Below are positions 3,364-27,372 of a stretch of 32,484 nt of DNA, in pieces. Positions within the stretch are counted from its first letter, which is position 1. Each line of letters begins with the position of its first letter. A program made the translations under genes and the position numbers. The DNA is from a virus (taxonomy: Duplodnaviria; Heunggongvirae; Uroviricota; Caudoviricetes), in IMG/VR virus record IMGVR_UViG_2548876858_000013, one strand, 5' to 3'. The notes under the pieces are model-generated. The model made no database searches, was not told where the DNA came from, and saw nothing but the letters and a program-made list of their open reading frames with translations.

Positions 3364-3587
3364 TGCCGGACAACGTAGATTTTATTCAGGAACAACAGGC
3401 TGAATTACTGGAGCGTCAGATTAACGCGGCAAGGGTAAAACATTGCGGTGCTTCTGCGCTGGTTTGCGAAGAGTGTGACGCGCCAATACCTGCTGCCCGT
3501 CGTGCGGCTTATCCGTCAGCCACGCGTTGTGTTTCCTGCCAGTCAGTCTTTGAAGCAAAAAACAAACATTACCGGAGAACGGCATGA
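3363..3587 (+). CDS. TraR/DksA-family C4 zinc-finger protein
   Basis: 74 aa with a four-cysteine motif CEECDAPIPAARR...TRCVSCQ typical of phage TraR/DksA-like proteins; start overlaps the upstream stop (TAATG). Confidence 0.8.
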   Translation: MPDNVDFIQEQQAELLERQINAARVKHCGASALVCEECDAPIPAARRAAYPSATRCVSCQSVFEAKNKHYRRTA

Positions 3588-3859: not shown

Positions 3860-6125
3860 AGCCTCCGGGCGTTTTGTCCCTCCGTCAGCATTTGCCGCAG
3901 GCACCGGTAAGGCGTTTACCGGTGCTTATGCATGGAACGCGCCACGCGAGGCTGTCGGGCGCGAAAGACCCCTTACACGTGACGAGATGCGTCAGGTGCA
4001 AGGTGTTTTATCCACGATTAACCGCCTGCCTTACTTTTTGCGCTCGCTGTTTACTTCACGCTATGATTACATCCGGCGCAATAAAAGCCCGGTGCACGGG
4101 TTTTATTTCCTCACAGCCACTTTTCAGCGTCGTTTATGGCCGCGCATTGAGCGCGTGAATCAGCGCCATGAAATGAACACCGACGCGTCGTTACTGTTTC
4201 TGGCAGAGCGTGACCACTATGCGCGCCTGCCGGGAATGAATGACAAGGAGCTGAAAAAATTTGCCGCCCGTATCTCATCGCAGCTTTTCATGATGTATGA
4301 GGAACTCTGCGATGCCTGGGTGGATGCCCATGGCGAAAAAGAATCGCTGTTTACGGATGAGGCGCAGGCTCACCTGTATGGTCATGTTGCTGGCGCTGCA
4401 CGTGTTTTCAATATTTCCCCGCTCTACTGGAAAAAATACCGTAAAGGACAGATGACCACGAGGCAGGCATATTCTGCCATTGCCCGCCTGTTTAACGATG
4501 AGTGGTGGACTCATCAGCTTAAAGGCCAGCGTATGCGCTGGCATGAGGCGTTACTGATTGCTGTCGGGGAGGTCAATAAAGACCGTTCTCCTTATGCCAG
4601 TAAACATGCCATTCGTGATGTGCGTGCACGCCGCCAGGCAAATCTGGAATTTCTTAAATCGTGTGACCTTGAAAACAGGGAAACCGGCGAGCGCATCGAC
4701 CTTATCAGTAAGGTGATGGGCAGTATTTCTAATCCTGAAATTCGCCGGATGGAGCTGATGAACACCATTGCCGGTATTGAGCGTTACGCCGCAGCAGAGG
4801 GTGATGTGGGGATGTTTATCACGCTGACCGCGCCGTCAAAGTATCACCCGACACGTCAGGTCGGAAAAGGCGAAAGTAAAACCGTCCAGCTAAATCACGG
4901 CTGGAACGATGAGGCATTTAATCCAAAGGATGCGCAGCGTTATCTCTGCCATATCTGGAGCCTGATGCGCACGGCATTCAAGGATAATGATTTACAGGTC
5001 TACGGTTTGCGTGTCGTCGAGCCACACCACGACGGAACGCCGCACTGGCATATGATGCTTTTTTGTAATCCGCGCCAGCGTAACCAGATTATCGAAATCA
5101 TGCGTCGCTATGCGCTCAAAGAGGATGGCGACGAAAGAGGAGCCGCGCGAAACCGTTTTCAGGCAAAACACCTTAATCGGGGCGGTGCTGCGGGGTATAT
5201 CGCGAAATACATCTCAAAAAACATCGACGGCTATGCACTGGATGGTCAGCTCGATAACGATACCGGCAGGCCGCTGAAAGATACTGCTGCGGCTGTTACC
5301 GCATGGGCGTCAACGTGGCGCATTCCGCAATTTAAAACGGTTGGTCTGCCGACAATGGGGGCTTACCGTGAACTACGCAAATTGCCTCGCGGTGTCAGCA
5401 TTGCTGATGAGTTTGACGAGCGCGTCGAGGCTGCACGCGCCGCTGCAGACAGTGGTGATTTTGCGTTGTATATCAGCGCGCAGGGCGGGGCAAATGTCCC
5501 GCGCGATTGTCAGACTGTCAGGGTCGCCCGTAGCCCGTCGGATGACGTTAACGAGTACGAGGAAGAAGTCGAGAGAGTGGTCGGCATTTACGCGCCGCAT
5601 CTCGGCGCGCGTCATATTCATATCACCAGAACGACGGACTGGCGCATTGTGCCGAAAGTTCCGGTCGTTGAGCCTTTGACTTTAAAAAGCGGCATCGCCG
5701 CGCCTCGGAGTCCTGTCAATAACTGTGGAAAGCTCACCGGTGGTGATACTTCGTTACCGGCTCCCACACCTTCTGAGCACGCCGCAGCAGTGCTTAATCT
5801 GGTTGATGACGGTGTTATTGAATGGAATGAACCGGAGGTCGTGAGGGCGCTCAGGGGCGCATTAAAACACGACCTGCGAACGCCAAACCGTCAGCAAAGA
5901 AACGGAAGCCCGTTAAAACCACATGAAATTGCACCATCGGCCAGACTGACCCGGTCGGAAAGAATGCAAATTACCCGTATCCGCGTTGACCTTGCTCAGA
6001 ACGGTATCAGGCCGCAGCGATGGGAGCTTGAGGCGCTGGCGCGTGGCGCGACCGTAAATTATTACGGGAAATCTTTCAATTATCAGGTCGCTGATGAGTG
6101 GCCTGGATTTTTGTTACCCATTTGA
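3849..6125 (+). CDS. A: Rolling-circle replication initiation endonuclease (P2 gpA-like)
   Basis: Long ORF 3807..6125; start may be the ATG at 3849 (MAVKASG...) or 3807. Contains an HUH-like motif (PHWHMMLF, about 5038-5060) and a paired-tyrosine motif (GYIAKYISK, about 5195-5220) characteristic of phiX174/P2-type Rep proteins; P2 gene A position. Confidence 0.85.
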   Translation: MAVKASGRFVPPSAFAAGTGKAFTGAYAWNAPREAVGRERPLTRDEMRQVQGVLSTINRLPYFLRSLFTSRYDYIRRNKSPVHGFYFLTATFQRRLWPRIERVNQRHEMNTDASLLFLAERDHYARLPGMNDKELKKFAARISSQLFMMYEELCDAWVDAHGEKESLFTDEAQAHLYGHVAGAARVFNISPLYWKKYRKGQMTTRQAYSAIARLFNDEWWTHQLKGQRMRWHEALLIAVGEVNKDRSPYASKHAIRDVRARRQANLEFLKSCDLENRETGERIDLISKVMGSISNPEIRRMELMNTIAGIERYAAAEGDVGMFITLTAPSKYHPTRQVGKGESKTVQLNHGWNDEAFNPKDAQRYLCHIWSLMRTAFKDNDLQVYGLRVVEPHHDGTPHWHMMLFCNPRQRNQIIEIMRRYALKEDGDERGAARNRFQAKHLNRGGAAGYIAKYISKNIDGYALDGQLDNDTGRPLKDTAAAVTAWASTWRIPQFKTVGLPTMGAYRELRKLPRGVSIADEFDERVEAARAAADSGDFALYISAQGGANVPRDCQTVRVARSPSDDVNEYEEEVERVVGIYAPHLGARHIHITRTTDWRIVPKVPVVEPLTLKSGIAAPRSPVNNCGKLTGGDTSLPAPTPSEHAAAVLNLVDDGVIEWNEPEVVRALRGALKHDLRTPNRQQRNGSPLKPHEIAPSARLTRSERMQITRIRVDLAQNGIRPQRWELEALARGATVNYYGKSFNYQVADEWPGFLLPI

Positions 6126-6385
6126 GTAAAAATGCAGCGTGATTTTATATGCCTTTGAATGGATTATGCGAAGCGCCTCTAAGGCAGATGAGGAGCAATA
6201 GCATGCTGAAGTAGAAGGCTAAATTGTATTGAATCGCTAGCATGTAATTTAAGGCAGCTATTTGATTCGAGTCATAAAAGAGCATCTATTTCGGCTAATA
6301 AAACCATTGCGAGTGACCTTTTGTCGAAGCATAATTCATCTCGAGCGAAGTCTTGCTAGTCTTTCATCGGAATGATGACAGGCGC

Positions 6386-6415
6386 AAAAAAACCACCCTG
6401 GCAGGTGGTTTTTTT
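6386..6415. terminator. Bidirectional intrinsic terminator-like hairpin
   Basis: AAAAAAACCACC / loop CTGGCA / GGTGGTTTTTTT: an A-tract and T-tract flanking a GC stem; 13 nt downstream of the minus-strand small ORF stop and about 260 nt downstream of gene A. Confidence 0.6.
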
Positions 6416-6427
6416 GTTTGAAGCATA

Positions 6428-6541
6428 CTAAAGAATAATACTTACATGGATATTACTGACGTTTACTGACAAACCACTTGGACTACCATATGGATAGCCA
6501 AAGAGGGCCAGAACGAGAATGCAGTAATAGCACTTCTTCAT
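6428..6541 (-). CDS. Small hydrophobic protein (37 aa), candidate small membrane peptide
   Basis: Minus-strand ORF MKKCYYCILVLALFGYPYGSPSGLSVNVSNIHVSIIL, translated by hand. Near-consensus RBS GGAGGAGAT immediately upstream of the ATG and a hairpin terminator just downstream. Below the 60-aa cut-off of the ORF track. Confidence 0.4.
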   Translation of the reverse strand: MKKCYYCILVLALFGYPYGSPSGLSVNVSNIHVSIIL

Positions 6542-7112
6542 ATCTCCTCCTGTAAGCAGAGGGCAATTTCCGCCGATATATGCGCTTCTGAGGCGGAGTT
6601 ACTATTTAGCGAAGTCTTGCCCTGAAATAATGCTCTGTTTAAACGCAAAGTGATCTGGCATATCACCGAACAGAGAGCCTGAACAACACAACATATAGTA
6701 TGTCGTTGTTTCTGGTTGCATTTTATGTTGTGTAATACTGGTTTTGCATCAAGGATGTTTGAGCTTTTTTTGATATAGCTCAAAGTAAAAAGCAGGGACT
6801 ACGGATGATAAGGTATTGAAAGCAATGTAAATTTTTTAAAGTTATTGGTGGCTAAAAAATGCACGGTTTCAATATGGCGGACTTAAATAAGCAATTAAAA
6901 AAGTCATAAATATCACTAAAATCATGGTGTTACGTTTTTTTGTGGGAGCTGCGGTGACGCTTAAGTTGATTTGTCATTAAATAAGCCGTGCATGCAACAA
7001 GTGAATGTTTTTGCATGCGTCGGGGATGCCCGTTCCAGCTGCTCGCGGTCAGAGCTGGTGCGGATCCATAGTATCTATGCAACTGCATTAAAACCGCCAC
7101 ATGAAGCGGGCG

Positions 7113-7131
7113 GGCGAGGCGGGGAAAGCAC
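7113..7131. other. cos site (P2-type 19-nt cohesive end GGCGAGGCGGGGAAAGCAC)
   Basis: Exact 19-mer that I recall as the P2 cohesive end and start of the P2 genome, followed here by TGCGCGCT as I recall for P2; sits in a GC-rich patch within otherwise AT-rich DNA between A and Q. Confidence 0.65.
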
Positions 7132-7355
7132 TGCGCGCTCCATTAACGACCATTACATAATACTATTAGCCTATGAATCGAGTCATGAGATGTTATCTTT
7201 ACGATTCAGGCGAGTGCTTTCGTTACGATGAGTTAGTTTAAGCACACTATCTGCACAAAAAATAATCTGTTGAAGCGATTCATCATTCCTAACGCTCTAG
7301 AGTCTTAAATAAAAATATGTAAAATGCGTAAAATTTTCTGAATTATGGATCAGCT

Positions 7356-8438
7356 ATGCTTGGAACTTCATCACAAAGAGCTATTTCAGTACAACATGTT
7401 GATTTAAATGTAAAGTGTTGGGTCGTTAGACCTGGGATTAAGTATAGATATTTTGCAGACTTCCTTGAACGCAATATGGTTGCTACTGCTCACTTGGATA
7501 GGTTAAGTCCAGATCAAATTGACTTTAATGATGAAATTAACCATGAAAATATTAATCAAAAGGTTGATGGGTTAGATACTATTGGTTCAAGAAATATTCA
7601 TACCCAAATTGAAAATTTCCTCATAGATATGCAGGTCGGTGATGTTGTTTTCACTTTGTCAGGTGATATGGTTGTTCCTGGAGTTATTGCATCTTCCGCG
7701 TATTTTGAGCGTGAATGTTTAGGTAATAATGAAGGGTTTCATGTAAGACGTAGAGTCACATGGGGAGAGCCAGTTCGCAGACGAGAGATTCCATTAGCTC
7801 TTCAGAAATCGTTTACTGCATACCAGACCGTATTCTCTTTGGGCGGGAAGTCAGAAGAAGTACTGCATTGGTTAATGTCATTCTTTATAACGGATAATAT
7901 TTTCTGTACTAGCTTAAGAGTCGAGCAAGCAGAAGCCATTCGGCATCATACTCTTAAGCAGCTGGCTGAGCTGGTCGATAGAGTGCAGGTACTTGCGCTA
8001 TTAATTGGCGAAGAGTTTGATGGCGAGTATACAAACGAAGTTGTTCAGTTTGAGATGGAAAGACTTTCTAATAATGGAGAGTTATCCTTGACTGCTCAAC
8101 AAATGTTGATGTCTCCGGGGGATGTTTGGCTACAATTTAAAACAAATAATAGAAAGGCCGGAATTGCGTTTATGTTAATTATGGGGGCCATTTTTAATCA
8201 TGATGTAGCCTTCGCTTCAACGGTTGATAATCGTATAAGTGAGGAACTTCGATCTCATATTGAAGGGAAAAAAGAGGTTGCAATGGATGGATTAAACTTT
8301 GATAGAGTTTCTCAAGTTCTAGAGTTGCGTTTAAAAAGACAAAATAGAGGCTTTGTTTCTGCTCGTCCAACGAACCGTGAGATCGGACAGGGGATCAATT
8401 TCCCTGAAGATGGTGATGCGAGGCATGCGAGTGACTAA
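7356..8438 (+). CDS. Hypothetical cargo protein, 360 aa, soluble; first gene of a two-gene operon
   Basis: Long ORF in AT-rich DNA; weak RBS (GGAT), so the true start could be downstream. No nucleotidyltransferase GS..DxD motif and no clear HEPN or PD-(D/E)xK motif seen by eye. Confidence 0.7.
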   Translation: MLGTSSQRAISVQHVDLNVKCWVVRPGIKYRYFADFLERNMVATAHLDRLSPDQIDFNDEINHENINQKVDGLDTIGSRNIHTQIENFLIDMQVGDVVFTLSGDMVVPGVIASSAYFERECLGNNEGFHVRRRVTWGEPVRRREIPLALQKSFTAYQTVFSLGGKSEEVLHWLMSFFITDNIFCTSLRVEQAEAIRHHTLKQLAELVDRVQVLALLIGEEFDGEYTNEVVQFEMERLSNNGELSLTAQQMLMSPGDVWLQFKTNNRKAGIAFMLIMGAIFNHDVAFASTVDNRISEELRSHIEGKKEVAMDGLNFDRVSQVLELRLKRQNRGFVSARPTNREIGQGINFPEDGDARHASD

Positions 8439-8440
8439 CT

Positions 8441-9130
8441 ATGAACTTTGAATTTGTAAAAGAACACTGGCTGATAATAGGCATGCTATTCATAGCATGT
8501 CTATTATTAATTTTAAAATTCAAAGATATTTACAGAACACACGATCAGTTTAATAACGTCGTGATGTCATTGTGCGCTGTTTTGACACTTGTGTGGGGAG
8601 GATATACTTTTGATGTTTTGCACCAAAGGGATAAGGCAGAAGCTGATCTTATAGAGTTAAGAAATAGAATTAGAAATACAGAATCGACATTTTTTAATGT
8701 TGACGTTAATGTTGTTAAAATCGATGATGTGTTTTATATAAAGCCTATTGTGACTATTAGGAATAACAGTAATGAGCGAATTTATGTGAAGCTTAATAAC
8801 AAGTCCCTTGCTGTTAGTCGTGTTTTATCGGCCGGTGCAAAGCAAGTCGCTACGGAAGTTTTTTATCCAAATTATTATGAGGAGTTGGCTGTTCTTAATG
8901 AAGAAAGTAGCTCGCAAGGAAAAGCTAAAAATATACCTTTATATGACATATCCGTTCCTATCTCTGCTGAAAGACGCTTGAACTATCTTGTTTCGACAAA
9001 AGAAAAAGGAATGTATTATGTAACATTTAGTGCTGAGGCAATGAACGAAGATGGCTCGCCTGTTTCTAAATACATAAATGGGAAAAAATCTATATGGTTT
9101 TCTTCTTCATATATTGAAGTTAAAGATTGA
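8441..9130 (+). CDS. Hypothetical cargo membrane protein, 229 aa, two N-terminal TM helices plus a beta-rich-looking soluble domain
   Basis: ATG 2 nt after the upstream stop (TAACTATG). Hydrophobic segments WLIIGMLFIACLLLIL and VVMSLCAVLTLVWGGYTF; the remainder is rich in alternating hydrophobic/polar stretches. AT-rich. Confidence 0.7.
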   Translation: MNFEFVKEHWLIIGMLFIACLLLILKFKDIYRTHDQFNNVVMSLCAVLTLVWGGYTFDVLHQRDKAEADLIELRNRIRNTESTFFNVDVNVVKIDDVFYIKPIVTIRNNSNERIYVKLNNKSLAVSRVLSAGAKQVATEVFYPNYYEELAVLNEESSSQGKAKNIPLYDISVPISAERRLNYLVSTKEKGMYYVTFSAEAMNEDGSPVSKYINGKKSIWFSSSYIEVKD

Positions 9131-9225
9131 ATTTCTATTAAACCATATAGTAATTGAAGGTGTTGGGGGTTAATCTTGCCTGGATTGCATAGAATCACGC
9201 CGCCTGGAGACGGCGCTAAGGGTAC

Positions 9226-14933: not shown

Positions 14934-15032
14934 CAACCGAATGCGCCCCGCGCCAGGGCGGCACGCCGGTCAGTGAGGGTGAATCACCTGACACTGCACC
15001 GGCGTCCACCGCCCGACTTTTCAGAGGTAGTC

Positions 15033-15542
15033 ATGATGACGCTGATTATTCCGCGAAAGGAGGCTCCCGTGTCCGGTGAGGGTACGGTGGTCATCCCGCA
15101 ACCGGCAGGCGACGAGCCGGTGATTAAAAACACGTTCTTTTTTCCCGATATCGACCCGAAGCGCGTCCGGGAACGTATGCGCCTTGAGCAGACCGTCGCC
15201 CCCGCCCGTCTGCGTGAGGCCATCAAGTCAGGCATGGCGGAAACAAATGCGGAGCTGTACGAGTACCGCGAACAGAAAATTGCCGCCGGTTTTACGCGTC
15301 TGGCGGACGTCCCGGCGGACGATATCGACGGTGAAAGCATCAAAGTTTTTTACTACGAGCGCGCCGTGTGTGCGATGGCGACCGCGTCGCTTTATGAGCG
15401 TTACCGCGGCGTGGATGCCAGTGCGAAAGGCGACAAGAAGGCTGACAGCATTGACAGCACCATTGATGAACTGTGGCGGGATATGCGCTGGGCAGTGGCG
15501 CGCATCCAGGACAAGCCGCGCTGCATCGTGAGTCAAATCTGA
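15033..15542 (+). CDS. L: Head completion/stabilisation protein (P2 gpL-like)
   Basis: ATG at 15033 with GAGG five nt upstream gives 169 aa (recalled P2 gpL length); the ORF track start at 14973 is upstream and in frame. Confidence 0.85.
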   Translation: MMTLIIPRKEAPVSGEGTVVIPQPAGDEPVIKNTFFFPDIDPKRVRERMRLEQTVAPARLREAIKSGMAETNAELYEYREQKIAAGFTRLADVPADDIDGESIKVFYYERAVCAMATASLYERYRGVDASAKGDKKADSIDSTIDELWRDMRWAVARIQDKPRCIVSQI

Positions 15543-15745
15543 TGAAGACCTTTGCGCTACAGGGCGACACGCTCGACGCCATTTGTGTCCGGTATTACGG
15601 GCGCACTGAGGGCGTGGTTGAGACCGTGCTCGCCGCAAATCCGGGACTGGCTGAACTGGGTGCTGTGCTGCCGCACGGCACCGCCGTCGAACTGCCCGAC
15701 GTTCAGACCGCGCCCGTGGCTGAAACTGTCAATCTGTGGGAGTAA
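15542..15745 (+). CDS. X: Tail protein X (P2 gpX-like)
   Basis: 67 aa (MKTFALQGDTLDAICVRYYG...) starting at the ATG overlapping the gpL stop (TGATG); matches recalled P2 gpX length. Confidence 0.8.
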   Translation: MKTFALQGDTLDAICVRYYGRTEGVVETVLAANPGLAELGAVLPHGTAVELPDVQTAPVAETVNLWE

Positions 15746-17781: not shown

Positions 17782-18226
17782 GTTTAAGCGTTTTGAAGAC
17801 CGGCTGACCGGACTGATTGAATCGCTGTCACCGTCAGGGCGTCGGCGACTGAGTGCCGAACTGGCGAAACGCCTGCGGCAGAGTCAGCAGCGTCGGGTGA
17901 TGGCACAGAAAGCTCCGGACGGCACACCCTACGCGCCACGCCAGCAGCAGAGCGCCAGAAAAAAGACCGGTCGTGTTAAGCGAAAAATGTTTGCGAAACT
18001 TATCACCAGTCGTTTTTTGCATATCCGCGCCAGCCCGGAACAGGCATCAATGGAGTTTTACGGCGGGAAGTCACCGAAAATCGCCAGTGTGCATCAGTTC
18101 GGTCTGTCGGAAGAAAACCGGAAAGACGGTAAGAAAATTGATTATCCGGCGCGTCCTCTGCTCGGCTTTACCGGTGAGGATGTGCAGATGATTGAAGAGA
18201 TTATCCTGGCTCACCTTGAGCGTTAG
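17774..18226 (+). CDS. S: Tail completion protein (P2 gpS-like)
   Basis: 150 aa, recalled P2 gpS length, in synteny. Confidence 0.85.
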   Translation: MNEFKRFEDRLTGLIESLSPSGRRRLSAELAKRLRQSQQRRVMAQKAPDGTPYAPRQQQSARKKTGRVKRKMFAKLITSRFLHIRASPEQASMEFYGGKSPKIASVHQFGLSEENRKDGKKIDYPARPLLGFTGEDVQMIEEIILAHLER

Positions 18227-18297: not shown

Positions 18298-19083
18298 TTA
18301 TGAGTGGTTTTTATTTGATGCTTTGTATTCTAAAACCTTCTTATTGGCGTAAAGGAATTTTGTATATGACAGGAATATAAGCAGACCTGAAATGAAATAG
18401 GTTAGGGATATTATTAATAATGTTTTTCTGTGGCTGTTATTATCTTTAATCTCCTGACTTAACCATTCGGAGTCCTCCTTGTTTAGCTGTAAGAGCTTAT
18501 TGCAGGCGATCTCGGGAAGTGTGTCTTTTATAAATACGTTTTGCAGACTCTTGCAATCGGCAAGGCTATAAGTTTTATTAAATTCAACCGTTTTATTTTT
18601 GAAGGATAAAAGAACTTTGTCACTATAAACATAGTACATCATATTTTTATATGGTATACCTATGGCATCCCTTACTATAGCGGATTGTTCATTGTGTATA
18701 TAACATGCGAAGAGAATATAAATAATACTGGCCAGAATTACAATTATTGTTTTAATTATGTGTGGTGGTTTTGTTATGTCACCCCAGATGCGAGTAAGGA
18801 AAAAATACGATGTTTTTAGTTTTCCATCAATCAGTCCCTGCTGTATCATTCTCACATTTTCAATGCCTGATACATTGATTCCGTTAATTATTTTAAATAG
18901 TTGAATGTCGCGCCACTCGCGGTCAAGTCTTTTTAATTTTTTGTCTGAATATCCAAAATTGAAATAATGTGCAATAAGCCTCATAAGGTTACTTTTACCA
19001 AAGCTAAAAAATGCTAATACTGCAAAGCTACAAAGGAAAAAAACGATTAGCCCCCACACATTAGTCACATTATAGCTGACCAT
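18298..19083 (-). CDS. Hypothetical cargo membrane protein, 261 aa, three predicted TM helices
   Basis: Strong RBS (AAGGAG six nt upstream of the ATG at 19081-19083); very AT-rich; hydrophobic segments near the N-terminus (VWGLIVFFLCSFAVLAFFSF), middle (IIKTIIVILASIIYILFACYI) and C-terminus (LLIISLTYFISGLLIFLSY). Sits at the S-V variable locus. Confidence 0.75.
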   Translation of the reverse strand: MVSYNVTNVWGLIVFFLCSFAVLAFFSFGKSNLMRLIAHYFNFGYSDKKLKRLDREWRDIQLFKIINGINVSGIENVRMIQQGLIDGKLKTSYFFLTRIWGDITKPPHIIKTIIVILASIIYILFACYIHNEQSAIVRDAIGIPYKNMMYYVYSDKVLLSFKNKTVEFNKTYSLADCKSLQNVFIKDTLPEIACNKLLQLNKEDSEWLSQEIKDNNSHRKTLLIISLTYFISGLLIFLSYTKFLYANKKVLEYKASNKNHS

Positions 19084-19166
19084 TACGCTCTCCTTGAATG
19101 TTGTCTGGTAGTTCTACAAATGAATCCAGATAGCATAACTTTTATATATTGTGCAATCTCACATGC
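19084..19166. promoter_or_regulatory. Probable late promoter region upstream of V, shared with the divergent cargo gene
   Basis: Position-based inference; 83-bp AT-rich divergent intergenic region. Confidence 0.3.
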
Positions 19167-19802
19167 ATGAACACTCTCGCAAATATTCAGGAACTCGCGC
19201 GCGCACTGCGCAACATGATTCGCACCGGCATTATCGTCGAAACCGACCTTAACGCCGGTCGCTGCCGCGTGCAGACCGGCGGCATGTGCACCGACTGGCT
19301 TCAGTGGCTGACCCATCGCGCCGGGCGTTCGCGCACATGGTGGGCACCTTCCGTGGGGGAACAGGTGCTGATTCTGGCCGTGGGTGGTGAACTCGACACG
19401 GCGTTCGTTCTGCCGGGGATTTATTCCGGCGATAACCCCGCGCCGTCTGCGTCGGCGGATGCCCTGCATATCCGTTTCCCTGACGGGGCGGTGATTGAGT
19501 ATGAACCTGAAACCAGCGCGCTCACGGTAAGCGGAGTTAAAACGGCCAGCGTGACGGCTTCTGATTCTGTTACTGCCACGGTGCCGGTGGTCATGGTGAA
19601 AGCATCAACCCGCATCACCCTGGACACACCGGAGGTGGTCTGCACCAACAGGCTGATTACCGGCACGCTGGAAGTGCAGAAGGGCGGGACGATGCGCGGC
19701 AACATTGAACACACCGGCGGTGAGCTCTCATCAAACGGTAAGGTACTGCATACCCATAAACACCCCGGCGACAGCGGCGGCACAACCGGGGGACCTCTAT
19801 GA
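19167..19802 (+). CDS. V: Baseplate assembly/spike protein (P2 gpV-like)
   Basis: ATG at 19167 gives 211 aa (recalled P2 gpV length); the ORF track start at 19149 is a TTG. Confidence 0.85.
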   Translation: MNTLANIQELARALRNMIRTGIIVETDLNAGRCRVQTGGMCTDWLQWLTHRAGRSRTWWAPSVGEQVLILAVGGELDTAFVLPGIYSGDNPAPSASADALHIRFPDGAVIEYEPETSALTVSGVKTASVTASDSVTATVPVVMVKASTRITLDTPEVVCTNRLITGTLEVQKGGTMRGNIEHTGGELSSNGKVLHTHKHPGDSGGTTGGPL

Positions 19803-21592: not shown

Positions 21593-23722
21593 ATGAGCAC
21601 AAAATTCAGAACCGTTATCACCACTGCCGGTGCAGCAAAGCTGGCAGCGGCAACCGCGCCGGGAGGGCGGAAGGTCAACATTACCACGATGGCCGTCGGG
21701 GATGGCGGTGGTAAATTGCCTGTCCCGGATGCCGGACAGACCGGGCTTATCCATGAAGTCTGGCGACATACGCTGAACAAAATCAGCCAGGACAAACGAA
21801 ACAGTAATTATATTATCGCAGAGCTGGTTATTCCGCCGGAGGTGGGTGGTTTCTGGATGCGTGAGCTTGGCCTGTACGATGATGCGGGAACGTTAATTGC
21901 CGTGGCGAACATGGCCGAAAGTTATAAACCTGCCCTTGCCGAAGGCTCAGGGCGTTCGCAGACCTGCCGCATGGTCATCATCGTCAGCAGTGTGGCCTCA
22001 GTGGTGCTGACCATTGACACCACAACGGTGATGGCGACGCAGGATTACGTTGATGACAAAATTGCAGAGCATGAACAGTCACGACGTCACCCGGACGCCT
22101 CGCTGACCGCAAAAGGTTTTACTCAGTTAAGCAATGCGACCAACAGCACGTCTGAAACACTGGCCGCAACGCCGAAAGCGGTAAAGGCCGCCTATGACCT
22201 GGCTAACGGGAAATATACTGCGCAGGATGCCACCACAGCGCGAAAAGGTCTTGTCCAGCTCAGTAGTGCCACCAACAGCACGTCTGAAACGCTCGCCGCA
22301 ACACCAAAAGCGGTAAAGGCCGCGTATGACCTTGCTAACGGGAAATACACTGCACAGGACGCCACCACAGCGCGAAAAGGTCTTGTCCAGCTCAGTAGCG
22401 TCACCAACAGCGATTCTGAAATGCTTGCGGCAACGCCAAAGGCGGTTAAGACAGCGTATGACCTTGCTAATGGGAAATACACTGCACAGGATGCCACCAC
22501 GGCGCGGAAAGGTCTTGTTCAGCTCAGTAGCGCCACCAACAGCGATTCTGAAACGCTGGCTGCAACGCCAAAGGCGGTTAAGACAGCGTATGACCTTGCT
22601 AACGGGAAATACACTGCACAGGACGCCACCACAGCGAGAAAAGGCCTTGTCCAGCTCAGTAGCGCCACCAACAGCGATTCTGATACGCTGGCCGCAACAC
22701 CAAAAGCGGTGAGGTCTGCCTATGACAATGCTGAGAAACGTCTTCAGAAAGATCAGAACGGCGCGGATATTCCTGATAAAAGATTATTCCTGCGCAATAT
22801 TGGAGCAACAAATTCAACAACCATGTCTTTTAGTGGTGGTACAGGATGGTTCAGGCTGGCAACTGTAACCATGCCACAGGCCAGTTCCGTGGTTTACATA
22901 AGTCTGATTGGTGGTGCCGGGTATAATGTTAACTCCCCTATGCAGGCTGGTATATCTGAACTTGTTCTTCGTGCGGGAAATGGAAATCCAAAAGGTCTTA
23001 CTGGTGCGTTATGGCGACGGACCTCGGTTGGATTTACTAATTTTGCATGGGTGAATACATCCGGTGATACCTATGATGTTTATGTTGAAATAGGTAATTA
23101 CGCCACAGGTGTTAATATTCAGTGGGATTATACCAGTAACGCCAGCGTAACGATTCATACATCACCAACTTATACAGCGAATAAACCAACAGGCCTGACA
23201 GATGGAACTGTATATGTAATTTACAGTTCGCACATTAAACCGACTGCTGCTGATGTTGGGGCGTTATCATTATCTGGAGGTCAATTGAATGGTGCACTGG
23301 GCATCGGTACATCCAGTGCTCTTGGCGGTAACTCGATTGTTTTGGGTGATAATGACACGGGCTTTAAACAAAATGGCGACGGTAATCTGGATGTTTATGC
23401 TAATAACGTCCATGTTATGCGCTTTGTCTCCGGTAGCATTCAAAGTAATAAAACCATAAATATTACGGGGCGTGTTAATCCCTCGGATTACGGTAACTTT
23501 GATTCCCGCTATGTCCGGGATATCCGGCTTGGTGGTGCTGCCACATACAAACCTGCGAACAATGGCATGACATGGACACATCAGGCACCATCCGGGTGTG
23601 TATATTCCGGCATTATTGTTCAGGATACCGGCTCAAACTCTGCCGATAACATTGGTGGCGTATATTACAGGCCGGTGCAGAAATACATTAACGGGACATG
23701 GTATAACGTGGTGCAGGTATAA
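21593..23722 (+). CDS. H: Tail fiber protein (P2 gpH-like) with internal tandem repeats
   Basis: 709 aa after the baseplate genes; conserved N-terminal region, a central block of 44-aa tandem repeats, and a more AT-rich C-terminal region. Confidence 0.9.
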   Translation: MSTKFRTVITTAGAAKLAAATAPGGRKVNITTMAVGDGGGKLPVPDAGQTGLIHEVWRHTLNKISQDKRNSNYIIAELVIPPEVGGFWMRELGLYDDAGTLIAVANMAESYKPALAEGSGRSQTCRMVIIVSSVASVVLTIDTTTVMATQDYVDDKIAEHEQSRRHPDASLTAKGFTQLSNATNSTSETLAATPKAVKAAYDLANGKYTAQDATTARKGLVQLSSATNSTSETLAATPKAVKAAYDLANGKYTAQDATTARKGLVQLSSVTNSDSEMLAATPKAVKTAYDLANGKYTAQDATTARKGLVQLSSATNSDSETLAATPKAVKTAYDLANGKYTAQDATTARKGLVQLSSATNSDSDTLAATPKAVRSAYDNAEKRLQKDQNGADIPDKRLFLRNIGATNSTTMSFSGGTGWFRLATVTMPQASSVVYISLIGGAGYNVNSPMQAGISELVLRAGNGNPKGLTGALWRRTSVGFTNFAWVNTSGDTYDVYVEIGNYATGVNIQWDYTSNASVTIHTSPTYTANKPTGLTDGTVYVIYSSHIKPTAADVGALSLSGGQLNGALGIGTSSALGGNSIVLGDNDTGFKQNGDGNLDVYANNVHVMRFVSGSIQSNKTINITGRVNPSDYGNFDSRYVRDIRLGGAATYKPANNGMTWTHQAPSGCVYSGIIVQDTGSNSADNIGGVYYRPVQKYINGTWYNVVQV
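22113..22722 (+). repeat. In-frame tandem repeat inside the tail fiber gene, about 4.6 copies of a 132-bp (44-aa) unit
   Basis: Repeated peptide KGLVQLSSATNS(T/D)SETLAATPKAVKAAYDLANGKYTAQDATTAR; copies begin near 22113, 22245, 22377, 22509 and 22641 with a few substitutions. Confidence 0.85.
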
Positions 23723-23725
23723 TTT

Positions 23726-24253
23726 ATGCAGCATTTAAAAAATATTACGGCGGGTAATCCAAAAACGGTTGAACAATATCAATTAACAAAGGACTTTGAT
23801 GTTGTCTGGTTTTTTTCAGAAGATGGTAAGAACTGGTACGAAGAACAAAAGTATTTTGCTGATGACACGATAAAAATAGCGTACGACAAAGATAATATCA
23901 TCCGCTATGTGGAAAAGGATGTGACAGCTATCAGACCAGATGGATTAAGTGTTGTTGAAGTGGCGGATATTACTGCTAACCGACGGGCGGACATTTCAGG
24001 GAACTGGATGTTTAAAGACGGCACAGTGATTAAACGAATTTATACGGCGGAGGAATTGCAGCAGCAGGCAGAAAATCGGAAAGCCAGACTTCTTACAGAT
24101 GCTGAATACGTGATTTTGCCGTTGGAGCGCGCGGTCAGGCTGAACATAGCAACAGAGGAGGAGCGCACACGGTTGGAGGCTTGGGAACGCTACAGCGTTC
24201 TGGTCAGTCGTGTGGATCCTGCGAATCCTGAATGGCCGGAAATGCCGCAATAA
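23726..24253 (+). CDS. G: Tail fiber assembly protein (P2 gpG-like)
   Basis: 175 aa, recalled P2 gpG length, directly after H. Confidence 0.85.
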
Positions 24254-24310
24254 GTTCTATGAGCTCTGGTGTGAGCTGACATATCTATGGCAAAGAGTAA
24301 AGCCTAATCT

Positions 24311-24342
24311 GACAGTCCGCTCTGTGCCATGAGCGGACTGTC
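24311..24342. terminator. Perfect 12-bp inverted repeat stem-loop downstream of G (possible terminator)
   Basis: GACAGTCCGCTC / 8-nt loop / GAGCGGACTGTC; no clear U-tract, so terminator efficiency is uncertain. Confidence 0.4.
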
Positions 24343-24537
24343 AATAAACAGATTTACGTGTAAATCTTGAAGCTATACATATTTACTTTCAATGATAAAT
24401 AAAAGAACCACCCCAAAATCACTGAAAGTATATTTTAACTAACCACCTGCAACTACTAACATTAATTTCACTCAACCTCAAAGAGTCGTAATTAAAATGA
24501 TATGTATAGCAATTTGCCTCGATACGAATCATATGAA

Positions 24538-25236
24538 TTATATTTTTCCATGCTTTTCACCGTCAAATCGAATCATGCTAGGATCAAGAAAATAAATCAA
24601 ATCAATTAACGCATGTTGTATTCTGATTAGCCTTTCTTTATAAGGCTCGATATTTTTTGTCATATTTATCACTTCATTGTTTAAATCTAAAAAAAATGGT
24701 TCATTGACAAAGCAATTTTCCTTTGTGAAACCGCCGTAACCTATGCAATCAAATCCAGCATCTGTTGATATCAACATCTTTTCCGCAATAGCTCTCTGCT
24801 CTCCTATGAAAAACATAAAATACTGACCAAAGGCGTCTGTTTGGATTAATGAGTTAATATTGTTCTGTAATCTAATAAACTCCCTCATTTTTTTATTTTT
24901 TTCTAGACTAAGGTATTGAATGTCTATGCGGGCAGCTTCTGTCCATGCAAAGAACTGGGAAAAAAGAAAAACCGTATTTTTGATAACATAATCTTGTTGG
25001 CGCTTACTCCCATTATGATAAAACTCTTCAATAAACCCTAATTCTAATATGTTATAAATGCGGCTTTGTAAGTCTGAAGCTGAGCGAATTAACGGTTCAA
25101 TATAGTACTGATGTTTTCTCCTTACATCCAGTGTTTCATTGAGCTTGTTTATTCTATTCTGATTATAGGTAGATATAGCAATAGAGATTATAGATATTGC
25201 ACCACCAATAAGGCTTGAAATTAATGCCACACTCAT
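24538..25236 (-). CDS. Hypothetical cargo protein, 232 aa, N-terminal TM helix plus soluble domain
   Basis: RBS AAGGA seven nt upstream of the ATG at 25234-25236; very AT-rich; N-terminal hydrophobic segment VALISSLIGGAISIISIAISTY; at the G-FI variable locus. Confidence 0.7.
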   Translation of the reverse strand: MSVALISSLIGGAISIISIAISTYNQNRINKLNETLDVRRKHQYYIEPLIRSASDLQSRIYNILELGFIEEFYHNGSKRQQDYVIKNTVFLFSQFFAWTEAARIDIQYLSLEKNKKMREFIRLQNNINSLIQTDAFGQYFMFFIGEQRAIAEKMLISTDAGFDCIGYGGFTKENCFVNEPFFLDLNNEVINMTKNIEPYKERLIRIQHALIDLIYFLDPSMIRFDGEKHGKI

Positions 25237-26058
25237 CTAAAAGTCCTTTGATTTTCTTGGTTAACAAAATGACATGGTTTTATTTAATGTCGCAGCAACT
25301 TAATAATACACCATGATATGATTATTATGGTGTGATTTTTCGCATCTGTAATCCATTACAAACAGATGCAAGGTATAACTTGTCTATTTTTAGTCAGAAA
25401 ATTCGTAAACATCCAAAGTAGCCTCATCAAACTCTTAAAATTCTATACATTTGAGTGTAAAGATTTTAAATTCAGCTGCATGGTATCGACTCATGTTTAT
25501 TATATCTTTTATTTGTAATTAAAGGTTGCATTATTTTCGATAGTAAATCATCGCAAGATTGAAATATGATTTCACTTGATGCAATGTTTCATGTGGCCCA
25601 GCGATTTGAGTTACACCCAGCTGTACGGGTAATATAAATCAAATTGATGAACTTTTGATACACTCCTCTCTCCTCATTACTTTATGTTTTTGCTCTCAAA
25701 AATATCTTGCTCTCTGAAAATTATTCTTTAAGTTCAAAGTCGAGGACTGCATGAGTGTTAGATACAAAGCTAATATGTTGAAATGTTTTTCATCTCCCCA
25801 TAACGGCATTATTATCTAAAATATTTACACAAATATAGGATTACCCCTTTAACGTAAACTAGGTATCAAGTTAACACCATTATATATATCATAAACATGA
25901 TATTTTGTATATTTTTATCATTTAGCCTTGATTGTACAGGGCGTACTCTCAACGAAGTAGGGAAAGTCTGTTTTTCGCTCAAAACTGGCTGTCAGATTTG
26001 ATAGCATTTGGGCTATGTAAATTGTCAGTTGGAGAATGAGGGAGTAAAAATCAGGACA

Positions 26059-26085
26059 GGCGGGCGAATTGCCCGCCTTTTCTTT
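26059..26085 (+). terminator. Intrinsic terminator-like hairpin upstream of FI
   Basis: GGCGGGC / loop GAATT / GCCCGCC followed directly by TTTTCTTT on the plus strand. Confidence 0.5.
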
Positions 26086-26181
26086 ATCTGTTGTTTCATC
26101 CACTGACCAGCCAGGTCAAATAGCGTCTCATGTACTACCCAACGGAAAATAGTTGCACCCATTAACCACGGAGTTAAACGG
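26086..26181 (+). promoter_or_regulatory. Probable late promoter region upstream of FI, inferred by position
   Basis: Region between the terminator and the FI start. One-mismatch candidate to the recalled TGT-N12-ACA late-promoter site (TGT at 26092-26094, CCA twelve nt later); not conclusive. Confidence 0.3.
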
Positions 26182-27372
26182 ATGAGTGACTATCATCACG
26201 GCGTGCAGGTGCTGGAGATTAACGACGGCACCCGCGTCATTTCCACTGTATCCACGGCCATTGTCGGCATGGTCTGCACGGCCAGCGATGCGGATGCGGA
26301 AATCTTCCCCCTCAATAAACCGGTGCTGATTACCAATGTGCAGAGCGCAATTGCAAAGGCCGGTAAAAAAGGCACGCTGGCGGCATCGTTGCAGGCTATC
26401 GCCGACCAGTCAAAACCGGTCACCGTTGTTGTGCGCGTGGAAGACGGCACCGGCGACGACGAAGAAACGAAACTCGCGCAGACCGTTTCCAATATCATCG
26501 GCACCACCGACGAAAACGGTCAGTACACCGGACTGAAAGCCCTGATGGGGGCGGAGTCGGTTACCGGCGTTAAACCACGCATTCTCGGCGTACCGGGGCT
26601 GGACACCAAAGAGGTTGCCGTCGCACTGGCATCGGTATGCCAGGAACTGAATGCATTCGGGTATATCAGCGCATGGGGCTGTAAAACCATTTCCGAGGCA
26701 AAAGCCTACCGTCAGAATTTCAGCCAGCGTGAGCTGATGGTCATCTGGCCGGATTTCCTCGCATGGGATACGGTTACCAGTACCACCGCCACCGCGTATG
26801 CCACCGCCCGTGCGCTGGGTCTGCGCGCTAAAATCGACCAGGAGCAGGGCTGGCATAAAACGCTGTCCAACGTCGGGGTGAACGGTGTTACCGGCATCAG
26901 TGCATCCGTCTTCTGGGATTTGCAGAAGCCCGGCACTGATGCTGACCTGCTTAACGAGTCAGGCGTCACTACGCTGATTCGCCGCGACGGTTTCCGCTTC
27001 TGGGGTAACCGTACCTGCTCTGATGATCCGCTGTTCCTCTTTGAAAGTTACACCCGCACCGCGCAGGTACTGGCCGACACGATGGCTGAGGCGCACATGT
27101 GGGCTATTGATAAGCCCATCACCGCAACGCTGATTCGCGACATCATTGACGGCATCAATGCCAAATTCCGTGAACTGAAAAACAACGGTTATATCGTGGA
27201 TGGCACATGCTGGTTCAGCGAAGAATCCAACGATGCGGAAACCCTCAAGGCCGGCAAACTGTATATCGACTACGACTATACACCGGTGCCTCCTCTTGAA
27301 AATCTGACCCTGCGCCAGCGTATTACTTCCAGATACCTGGCAAGTCTGGTCACTTCGGTTAACAGCAATTAA
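26182..27372 (+). CDS. FI: Tail sheath protein (P2 gpFI-like)
   Basis: 396 aa, recalled P2 FI length. Confidence 0.9.
   Translation: MSDYHHGVQVLEINDGTRVISTVSTAIVGMVCTASDADAEIFPLNKPVLITNVQSAIAKAGKKGTLAASLQAIADQSKPVTVVVRVEDGTGDDEETKLAQTVSNIIGTTDENGQYTGLKALMGAESVTGVKPRILGVPGLDTKEVAVALASVCQELNAFGYISAWGCKTISEAKAYRQNFSQRELMVIWPDFLAWDTVTSTTATAYATARALGLRAKIDQEQGWHKTLSNVGVNGVTGISASVFWDLQKPGTDADLLNESGVTTLIRRDGFRFWGNRTCSDDPLFLFESYTRTAQVLADTMAEAHMWAIDKPITATLIRDIIDGINAKFRELKNNGYIVDGTCWFSEESNDAETLKAGKLYIDYDYTPVPPLENLTLRQRITSRYLASLVTSVNSN

Follow-up and report, generated by a model that had tools for sequence, protein, structure and literature searches.

Why does almost a kilobase of a P2-like prophage carry no convincing gene, and why does it end in a transcription terminator with no gene in front of it? 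This question is raised by positions 25237-26181 of the window, by which we mean the whole stretch of 32,484 nucleotides that was analyzed. The original prediction described the region as AT-rich, devoid of a convincing ORF and carrying an orphan plus-strand terminator, and offered a small RNA, a small protein or the remnant of a decayed cargo gene as explanations. As a description of the local layout this was correct. The GC content is 0.309 from 25237 as far as 25960, in comparison to 0.505 for the whole window, and the sole ORF of at least 60 aa is a GTG-start frame of 61 aa on the minus strand (25918-26103), which crosses the hairpin; the next ORF in length has 50 aa. The absence of ORFs in DNA of 31% GC is unsurprising on its own. 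No plus-strand gene is located close before the terminator, the nearest one upstream being G (Caudo_TAP, a tail-fibre-assembly gene), which ends at 24253. Consensus scans gave no excess of promoter-like sites (7, as against 9.8 ± 3.6 in shuffles) or of terminator-like sites (4, as against 2.3 ± 1.7). The six-frame translation of 25237-26181 returned nothing credible from Pfam (only DUF354, E 0.12, below the cut-off) and zero matches from PADLOC, and a decayed reverse transcriptase or another known gene was rejected on the basis of these searches. We consider it highly probable that the 0.95 kb is a composite, in which the backbone of a P2-like prophage is joined to the non-coding half of a cargo cassette, and that, as part of the same reading, the "orphan" terminator is the ordinary terminator of the tail-fibre operon, placed 1.8 kb from gene G by the cargo insertion.

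The evidence for the second part of this reading comes from the comparison with relatives. The hairpin predicted at 26059-26085 was confirmed as a strong plus-strand intrinsic terminator at 26058-26088, with the sequence AGGCGGGCG-AAT-TGCCCGCCT, then TTTTCTTTAT, in which a G+C-rich stem of nine pairs, seven of them G-C, with a loop of three residues (26058-26078) is followed by a T-tract. We judged it to be real because it is conserved in 11 phages, and not because of the scan. The cargo-free phages PSP3, SEN1, BIS20 and P37 have the same hairpin and T-tract at the 3ʹ end of a same-strand transcription unit, 5 nt past the stop codon of G and directly before the late promoter and RBS of FI (the tail sheath protein), the start of which lies ~130 nt further on. 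The distance to the FI start codon and to the promoter blocks is the same in the window; the difference is that 1.8 kb of cargo and two inverted repeats separate the terminator from G. Homology to the cargo-free relatives sets in right at the hairpin (positions 114-119 of the query, 25940-26400), and the 3ʹ end of G in the window (…GAATGGCCGGAAATGCCGCAATAA) aligns with the P37 sequence that directly abuts the terminator.

The structure was also conserved across relatives, a check proposed together with the original prediction: 95.3% of the stem cells were paired among 8 distinct sequences, versus 37-61% for slid controls. One stem pair showed a compensatory change from C-G to U-A, three showed G-U variants, and the T-tract was invariant; the covariation of the stem taken alone was weak (57/500 shuffles). 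The terminator has 0-3 mismatches in 28 positions, in comparison to an FI pS of 0.12-0.20. According to these comparisons, an ancestor of the P2-type phages acquired foreign DNA between the G stop codon and the terminator that closes the late V-W-J-I-H-G operon. The apparent orphan is parted from G only by the inserted cargo. Termination at 26058-26088 is predicted from these alignments; during lytic growth, late transcripts leaving G would cross the cargo antisense and would end no later than the backbone terminator, so that FI would be kept under its own promoter.

The whole of 26058-26181 is P2 backbone, in which the terminator is directly followed by the predicted Ogr-type late promoter and the RBS of FI. 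Alignments to relatives delimit the predicted late promoter region (PF type) with the GGAG RBS at 26089-26181 on the plus strand. It is located directly upstream of FI, contains a conserved GTTGT...(A/C)CA dyad region as well as the AAATAGC and GAAAATA blocks, and is under constraint, with 2-5 mismatches in 96 nt versus the FI pS of 0.12-0.20. P2 late promoters, which are activated by Ogr/Delta, have a TGT-N12-ACA dyad centred near -55 and a -10-like element, and no -35. An exact search for TGT-N12-ACA gave zero matches at PF in the window; the dyad reads TGT-N12-CCA (5/6) in the window, P2 and P37, and TGT-N12-ACA at the aligned position in PSP3, SEN1 and BIS20. The GAAAATA block downstream of the dyad is conserved. 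A literature search for descriptions of P2 late promoters and terminators found nothing usable.

The same hairpin could alternatively close a small RNA, as was originally proposed: a plus-strand transcript of ~100-160 nt, with a promoter in 25890-26050 and its end at 26058-26088, acting as a regulator such as a CsrA/RsmA sponge. On the plus strand, 25925-26092 indeed folded better than shuffles (z -3.9); however, most of the fold energy came from the terminator itself. Promoter-like hexamers are present at 25892-25921 and 26022-26051, but promoter-like sites are not enriched over shuffles. Several GGA motifs occur in the stretch, and a ~117-nt part of it that ends in the terminator (25969-26085) resembled RsmZ/PrrB (RF00166), albeit weakly (20.2 bits, E 0.075, in comparison to a gathering score of 44). 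In the gathering mode nothing in the whole window passed, and the E-value mode gave only sub-threshold noise among the Rfam families, RsmZ included. Moreover, the GGA motifs are lost in P2/EC67 (AGGGAG to AGTGAG and CAGGAC to CAGAAC), and 25975-26057 evolves neutrally, with a divergence equal to that of FI synonymous sites. Its location behind G in the cargo-free phages fully explains the terminator. Thus, a small RNA is very unlikely here.

The first part of the composite reading concerns the cargo itself. It was inserted at the Z/fun hotspot and is flanked by imperfect inverted repeats at 24226-24343 and 25962-26057. We take P2's own Z/fun gene to be an occupant of the same slot between G and FI; the 546-bp CDS at that slot in the P2 record is unnamed. 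The "right inverted repeat" (25962-26057, also given from 25959), defined by the annotation of AJ512683 and by our alignments, repeats 24226-24343 imperfectly in inverse orientation. P2, AC1, D8, L-413C, YpM46 and EC67 all have it regardless of cargo, the cargo-free relatives lack it, and in other elements its initial ~25 nt accompany the cassette as well. With 9-13 mismatches in 83 positions (25975-26057), close to the FI synonymous rate, it evolves about neutrally. A hairpin in this repeat (25985-26033) was considered and rejected, as its pairing is not kept in P2 (two broken pairs by eye). The opposite boundary of the cassette is marked by a perfect 13-bp palindrome, TGACAGTCCGCTC-N8-GAGCGGACTGTCA (24310-24343), which lies innermost in the left inverted repeat. 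The closest described counterpart is the proviral Z-region of P2-EC58 (AJ512683, Nilsson/Haggard-Ljungquist laboratory), which is 98% identical over 24254-26181, the window copy being ~2% different, and shares the minus-strand ORF1, the left and right inverted repeats and the AT-rich foreign composition. The annotation of that record is limited to ORF1, the repeats, a predicted promoter and an RBS, with neither the terminator nor PF nor the decayed nuclease-like gene recognized.

The present cargo is a ~1.7-kb minus-strand cassette that comprises a small PD-(D/E)XK-fold gene and then a gene for a 232-aa membrane protein. The latter (24538-25236, minus strand; "ORF1, putative lysogenic protein" of P2-EC58; phrog_5606) is an intact ORF; its product carries a transmembrane helix at the N-terminus and distantly matches the PADLOC model of RT-associated TM effectors, RTasTM (E 1e-6). 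Judging from its dN/dS of 0.12-0.28, this gene is under purifying selection, and in the lysogen it would be the only gene of the locus that matters. A copy of this gene together with 25237-25987, 81% identical, is present in 409 E. coli genomes; this copy (SK1144, ST131 type) belongs to a lambdoid prophage, in its replication-to-Q region, and the cassette was found again in a third context (L008-L010). No more diverse copies were found among plasmids, and only AJ512683 among phages; the GTDB representative genomes contributed one distant match in Yersinia, and IMG/VR two copies, both of the ST131 type. The non-coding cassette DNA is thereby represented by three lineages only, too few for a meaningful covariation analysis.

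The core of the region corresponds to the first gene of the cassette, and here the suggestion of a decayed cargo gene was borne out. Homology, lesions and the family fold identify 25394-25795 on the minus strand as a colinear, frame-broken copy of a ~150-aa PD-(D/E)XK-fold gene. In comparison to the frame of L008, where the gene is nearly intact (a single -1 frameshift), it has suffered 10 deletions (4, 1, 2, 10, 26, 1, 1, 2, 2 and 1 nt), none a multiple of 3. It contains at least four in-frame stops, its start codon is lost, and the catalytic motif VECKSH has become TAGCNS, with both E and K replaced. Six of the deletions are common to the lambdoid prophage copy, so the gene was dead before the cassette moved between phage types.

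The remnant was recognized only after a search with the sister lineage that has open frames. The L008 ORF has 415 homologues of ~150 aa, and the separate "ORF A" of L008 was rejected as an independent gene, since it matched only itself and constitutes the N-terminal half of the frameshifted 155-aa gene. In a tblastn search, P0121 matched two frames of L008 at 92% and 82% identity and SK1144 at 38% over 147 aa (E 1.5e-18); in the window it matched a fragment of 26 aa. Profile HMM matches were colinear, in the right order and on the right strand in L008 (1e-51 and 1e-26), SK1144 (3.5e-15) and the window (0.002 and 0.015). The window's own match to the family profile, obtained in a six-frame search of 945 bp, is weak, and the pseudogene call for this reason rests on transitive DNA homology via SK1144 and L008. 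The codon-phase test on the L008 and SK1144 ORFs revealed no excess of third-position changes, and the indels were not multiples of 3; the missing excess is expected if the gene is a pseudogene on at least one branch. The p-distance of the pseudogene is 0.22, versus a pS of 0.13 in the adjacent gene, and ranges from 0.18 to 0.24 across the non-coding DNA, which diverges at or above the synonymous rate.

The intact family has an alpha-beta-beta-beta-alpha-beta core with the D...(D/E)-x-K arrangement and an invariant D...E-C-K, which makes it a putative nuclease-like family of PD-(D/E)XK fold. No membership of the family in Pfam, NCBIfam or PADLOC was found. The nearest known counterparts are small stand-alone proteins of this fold, such as XisH-like 2okf, AF1548 and CdiA-CT nuclease domains; the family differs from them in that identity is only 12-14% and its nuclease activity is putative, and the window copy moreover lacks the E and K residues.

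The pseudogene also bears on the idea of a small protein. The 22-codon ORF indicated near 25750 exists, at 25751-25819 on the plus strand (MSVRYKANMLKCFSSPHNGIII), with an ATG start and a GAGGA site 4 nt upstream (25742-25746), and it has equal length in the ST131 lambdoid copy (SK1144, 81% DNA identity), where the changes are partly synonymous or conservative. However, the ORF overlaps the 5ʹ end of the pseudogene in antisense, namely the most conserved N-terminal motif of the decayed gene, FQRIGSxSNAHVG, and this accounts for the local conservation of the DNA. Start, stop and length were kept in SK1144 but not in the near-intact L008 lineage, where ATG is replaced by GTG, the SD is lost, the stop is displaced and the frame continues in a different, TTG-start ORF of 54 aa; in SK1144 the SD is also weakened to GAGA. 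The peptide is not hydrophobic and bears no resemblance to known toxins, and ORFs of 20-30 codons are plentiful in DNA of 31% GC. We judged the ORF to be a chance occurrence, and the probability that it encodes a functional micro-protein is close to negligible.

It could still be argued that the remnant was co-opted, and that ~750 bp upstream of the 232-aa gene are kept because they provide the gene with a promoter or a long regulatory leader, or the membrane protein with an RNA partner. Such a partner is conceivable, given that non-coding RNAs are employed by DRT systems with the related TM effector. In accordance with this idea, the whole non-coding stretch co-transfers with the 232-aa gene in three element contexts, the protein matches RTasTM, and RT-nitrilase plus TM systems have been described by Rousset et al. 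(PMC9122126). On the other hand, no RT accompanies the TM effector: the six-frame search of 25237-26181 against Pfam and PADLOC was empty of RT, and the locus is bordered by G and FI. Elsewhere, homologues of the 232-aa gene stand alone, which argues that it needs no RNA or protein partner from this region; their upstream gaps range from zero (L023, where the gene overlaps the preceding integrase gene) to 360 bp. A conserved upstream RNA in the more distant homologues was rejected, as their upstream regions are short and unrelated and contain no RT.

The DNA nearest to the membrane-protein gene gave a similar picture. The leader or intergenic segment between the pseudogene and the gene (25237-25393, minus strand) has a p-distance of 0.176 to the SK1144 copy, and the leader fold was no better than that of shuffles (z -1.55). 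The spacer contains an AT-rich 12-bp palindromic hairpin followed by ATTTTT on the plus strand (25307-25334), which may be a weak terminator or insulator and is not conserved in L008. The ORF1 promoter annotated in AJ512683 (25440-25469) could be taken as a sign of co-option, since it falls inside the present-day pseudogene, but it is poorly conserved. L008 has its own good sigma-70 promoter within a spacer of 160 bp (TTGACT-17-TATATT), the window equivalent of which is degenerate; any promoter of the 232-aa gene proposed here is a prediction from such motifs. Together with an overall non-coding divergence at or above the synonymous rate, these observations make co-option distinctly unlikely.

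One part of the region does not follow this pattern. Upstream of the pseudogene, 25796-25961 (minus strand) represents the former 5ʹ region of the decayed gene and has ~60 bp in common, by alignment, with the native locus of an intact member of the family. A distal block peculiar to the cassette, 25876-25982, overlaps this segment and has diverged less than the DNA around it, with 8/107 mismatches between the P2 and lambdoid copies, against ~0.19 elsewhere. This lower divergence is unexplained by pure decay; however, the block is not conserved in L008 (57-63% identity and an 18-bp insertion). Although bacterial genomes are usually biased towards deletion, ~750 bp of apparently neutral DNA persist in three element contexts. 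Within the composite reading, the remnant may persist as it lies between the 232-aa gene and whichever upstream promoter or boundary sequences the cassette has, and because cassettes would be swapped whole and not trimmed down.

A further, and in our opinion unlikely, possibility is that the inverted repeats and palindromic hairpins (24310-24343 and its degenerate copy at 25962-25998) may be active ends for cassette exchange. It is suggested by the occurrence of the same ~1.7-kb cassette, dead gene and fragments of both P2 repeats included, in three elements, the other two being the ST131 lambdoid prophage and a third island; the cassette breakpoints are close to these hairpins in all three. 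If this were true, the "junk" would be retained as part of a transfer unit defined by hairpins, which would give a concrete handle on cargo swapping at phage hotspots. In a lesser variant of this idea, the distal block would be a promoter or regulatory site needed by the membrane-protein gene.

In the defence hotspots of P2/P4, most predicted pseudogenes were described as small intergenic remnants of intense recombination, and near-identical cargo was also found in other mobile elements (PMC13586616, Nucleic Acids Res 2026). The locus analyzed here shows both features, an intergenic remnant and cargo shared with other elements. It differs in that the remnant could be traced to a defined family, that its intact neighbour is no recognized defence gene, and that the decay can be ordered, with six lesions common to the lambdoid copy and further ones private.

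Taken as a composite of phage backbone and decayed cargo, the region loses one false lead, since its terminator is not an orphan and neither a small RNA nor a micro-protein has evidence here. For annotation, the lesson is that the terminator of the P2 late operon should be looked for after the cargo and not after G. The locus provides a dated example of cargo decay in a phage hotspot, where one gene of two died before the transfer between P2-like and lambdoid phages and its neighbour stayed under selection. It also points to two uncharacterized families as candidates for phage-borne functions, the ~150-aa PD-(D/E)XK-fold protein and the 232-aa membrane protein related to RT-associated effectors.

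The region lies among the late genes of a P2-like prophage. Tail-fibre gene H (21593-23722) precedes tail-fibre assembly gene G (23726-24253, Pfam Caudo_TAP), and about 1.9 kb of AT-rich DNA then separates G from the tail sheath gene FI (start at 26182, Pfam Phage_sheath). In P2, the Z/fun lysogenic-conversion gene occupies this slot; a P2 genome record has an unnamed 546-bp CDS between G and FI. The original prediction had described 25237-26181 as AT-rich DNA without a convincing ORF and with an orphan plus-strand terminator. The features themselves were present: GC was 0.309 for 25237-25960 (0.402 for 25961-26057, 0.484 for 26058-26181 and 0.505 for the whole window), a single ORF reached 60 aa, a GTG-start 61-aa minus-strand frame running through the hairpin (all others were of 50 aa or less), a plus-strand terminator-like site lay at 26058-26078 (9 pairs, 7 of them G-C, then TTTTCTTTAT), and a 22-codon ORF with GAGGA lay at 25751-25819. 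Since promoter and terminator consensus scans gave no excess of hits over shuffled sequence, the weight must come from comparison with other genomes. The observation is real and its explanation ordinary: the region is made up of backbone elements (a terminator and a late promoter), a repeat that bounds the hotspot, and a cargo-cassette part with the leader and the dead upstream gene.

The right-hand 124 bp (26058-26181) are phage backbone. In a phage-genome search with 25940-26400, the matches fell into three classes by start point: 25959 in P2 and its closest relatives, 25975 in L-413C-like phages, and 26053-26058, exactly the hairpin foot, in more distant relatives. Four distant relatives, PSP3, SEN1, BIS20 and P37, are cargo-free, and in them the hairpin lies 5 nt past the end of G and about 130 nt before the FI start. 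The multiple alignment placed the 3' end of P37 G (…GAATGGCCGGAAATACCGCAATAA), which abuts the terminator, opposite 24230-24253 of the window. Because the hairpin follows G so closely in cargo-free phages, it would be the late tail-fibre operon's own, ordinary terminator, which the cargo has displaced; the predicted hairpin stands, but not its orphan status. Pairing of the stem was compared in 11 phages (8 distinct sequences) with a control in which the partner was slid: 95% of cells were paired, versus 37-61% in the control, the T-tract was invariant, and the variation comprised one C-G to U-A compensatory change and three pairs with G-U variants. By itself, the covariation among the 8 distinct sequences was not significant (57/500 shuffles). 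With 0-3 mismatches in the 28 nt of the terminator and 2-5 in the next 96 nt, both were conserved much above FI synonymous sites (pS 0.12-0.20). The 96 nt carry GTTGT…(A/C)CA, AAATAGC and GAAAATA blocks and a GGAG ribosome-binding site, with an exact TGT-N12-ACA in PSP3, SEN1 and BIS20 and TGT-N12-CCA in the window and P2; they presumably correspond to the Ogr-dependent late promoter PF of P2. Short minus-strand 'hypothetical proteins' are annotated across the terminator and PF in the D8 and 720R8 records (L039 1289-1405, L042 1160-1309); these are probably spurious, as is the 61-aa frame of the window.

The GenBank record of the P2-EC58 proviral Z-region (AJ512683), 98% identical to 24254-26181, annotates a left and a right inverted repeat (window 24226-24338 and 25966-26056) and a minus-strand ORF1 with a predicted promoter. 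We confirmed the repeats (69% identity in inverse orientation, AATCTGACAG common to both), and found them with unrelated cargo in the P2-type phages P2, AC1, D8, L-413C, YpM46 and EC67; they were absent from the cargo-free phages. We also noticed a perfect 13-bp palindrome, TGACAGTCCGCTC-N8-GAGCGGACTGTCA, at 24310-24343, the inner end of the left repeat, which is kept in both non-P2 cassette copies, as well as in P2-type phages whose cargo is unrelated, and has a T-tract on neither strand. The motif TGTCAG/CTGACA occurs five times across the two repeats. The right repeat differed between phages at 9-13 of 83 positions, which equals the FI synonymous rate, so that the constraint expected of an RNA gene is not seen. 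Most of the good fold of 25925-26092 (z -3.9) comes from the terminator, and no Rfam family reached threshold anywhere in the window. A weak RsmZ-like match over 25969-26085 was rejected, as it scored 20 bits against a gathering score of 44 and its GGA motifs are lost in P2 and EC67. Together with the assignment of the terminator to the late operon, the rate in the right repeat and the Rfam result argue against the sRNA that had been suggested.

The left-hand 750 bp are part of a cargo cassette. Of 5426 complete E. coli genomes, 409 (mostly ST131) carry 25237-25987 at 81% identity, together with the adjoining minus-strand gene for a 232-aa membrane protein (24538-25236, the ORF1 of P2-EC58); the P2-EC58 cassette type was present in only 4. 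The SK1144 cassette lies outside P2-like phages, in a lambdoid prophage, where the replication genes flank it on one side and the Q antiterminator on the other. A third copy has diverged further (84% identity of the protein); three independent assemblies (L008-L010) carry it in a different island. The copies of about 1.7 kb (window 24300-25990; the 14997-15695 region of L003/L019, from SK1144; L008 3100-4960) are distributed over the P2 Z/fun hotspot, the ST131 lambdoid replication-to-Q region and the third island. Of the P2 left repeat, the inner hairpin persists in the non-P2 copies; of the right repeat, SK1144 clearly retains the first ~25 nt, the right boundary being less sharp in L008. 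Judging from these traces, the cassette probably departed from a P2-type Z region. Its breakpoints lie near palindromic hairpins, with fragments of the P2 inverted repeats in the non-P2 copies.

Six-frame translations of the region gave no credible match to Pfam or PADLOC. In L008, two open frames lie 5' of the 232-aa gene: a search with the first returned only itself, and the second had 415 homologues of about 150 aa in Yersinia, Vibrio, Shewanella, Nitrosomonas, E. coli and metagenomes. A full-length homologue (P0121, 155 aa) aligned to both frames with 92% and 82% identity, which indicates that L008 carries a single gene split by one -1 frameshift in an A-run. The frameshift site (3560-3580, CAAAAAAT) is identical in L008, L009 and L010; the gene could have been inactivated very recently, or the site could, with lower probability, be a slippery one. 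The same homologue aligned over 147 residues to SK1144 (38%, E 1.5e-18) and over 26 residues to the window. A profile built from 40 family members matched L008 (1e-51 and 1e-26) and SK1144 (3.5e-15), and gave two weak colinear minus-strand matches in the window (0.002, positions 3-39; 0.015, positions 91-146). Projection of the L008 frame onto the window delimited a minus-strand pseudogene at 25394-25795 with ten deletions (4, 1, 2, 10, 26, 1, 1, 2, 2 and 1 nt) and at least four in-frame stops, in which the start codon is gone and VECKSH has become TAGCNS; the substitutions showed no codon-phase bias. The decayed cargo gene offered by the original prediction is therefore present. Since six of the deletions are common to SK1144 and the window, the gene had died before the P2 and lambdoid copies diverged. 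The 22-codon ORF is antisense to FQRIGSxSNAHVG, the N-terminal motif of the dead gene, which accounts for the better DNA conservation there. It is retained in SK1144, and in L008 its ATG is GTG, its GAGGA is lost and its frame extends into a different 54-aa TTG-start ORF. We regard it as a chance ORF and not as the functional small protein that had been considered.

The intact family had no assignment in Pfam, NCBIfam or PADLOC. Its AlphaFold model was confident (pLDDT 90) and D60, E71 and K73 were invariant. The predicted fold is PD-(D/E)XK, with an invariant D...E-C-K. The family (P0121-P0240) is widespread and lacks existing annotation. Its intact members are stand-alone genes. One of them occupies the cargo slot near the tail-fibre genes in another P2-like element (L036, L037), and another is found beside a Cap4 nuclease gene (L033); these contexts suggest a role in defence or addiction.

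The 232-aa gene is under purifying selection (dN/dS 0.12-0.28; pS 0.13 to SK1144 and 0.44 to L008). Homologues at a greater distance (51-69% identity; Lonsdalea 43%) were located in a conjugative element, next to PARIS genes and an integrase, in a P2-like remnant of Providencia and in chromosomal islands. The gap upstream of these homologues reaches 360 bp at most and is zero in Lonsdalea, where the gene and the integrase gene before it overlap; their upstream DNA showed no similarity to that of the window and no copy of the 150-aa gene. In L008, a good promoter lies in the 160-bp spacer directly 5' of the gene; its window equivalent is degenerate, the ORF1 promoter predicted in AJ512683 (25440-25469) falls within the pseudogene and is poorly conserved, and the leader does not fold notably well (z -1.55). 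The protein, which has a TM helix at its N-terminus, belongs to no Pfam or NCBIfam family. It gave a distant PADLOC match (E 1e-6) to the RT-associated TM effector model (RTasTM); RT-nitrilase plus TM systems were described by Rousset et al. (PMC9122126); no RT is present here. The gene occurs by itself as cargo in ICE, P2-like and PARIS-adjacent settings and is a candidate for a stand-alone function in exclusion or defence.

Other AT-rich inserts were observed in the window. A second island (6100-9200, GC 0.34-0.43), between the replication gene and the capsid genes, where P2 has the tin-old hotspot, contains ORFs of 360 aa (7356-8438; PADLOC candidate system PDC-S02, E 2e-12) and 229 aa (8441-9130; no match). 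A third insert (GC 0.33) holds a minus-strand ORF of 261 aa (18298-19083) without a Pfam or PADLOC match, abutted by a second minus-strand ORF (19083-19469). On one side of it a plus-strand ORF ends at 18226, and on the other the plus-strand late-gene ORFs resume.

The noncoding DNA of the cassette differs from SK1144 by a p-distance of 0.18-0.24, equal to or above the synonymous rate. A distal block (25876-25982) had 8/107 mismatches, versus ~0.19 in the surrounding noncoding DNA (P 0.047 against the synonymous rate and 0.0007 against the local noncoding rate, for a block chosen post hoc), and showed no conservation in L008; it could reflect gene conversion in the recent past or a functional site specific to the lineage. 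About 750 bp of seemingly neutral DNA has been kept in three contexts. Either whole cassettes are swapped faster than deletions accumulate, or part of this DNA has a promoter or recombination function, which we consider improbable. A 2026 survey of P2/P4 hotspots attributes such remnants to whole-cassette swapping outpacing deletion (PMC13586616).
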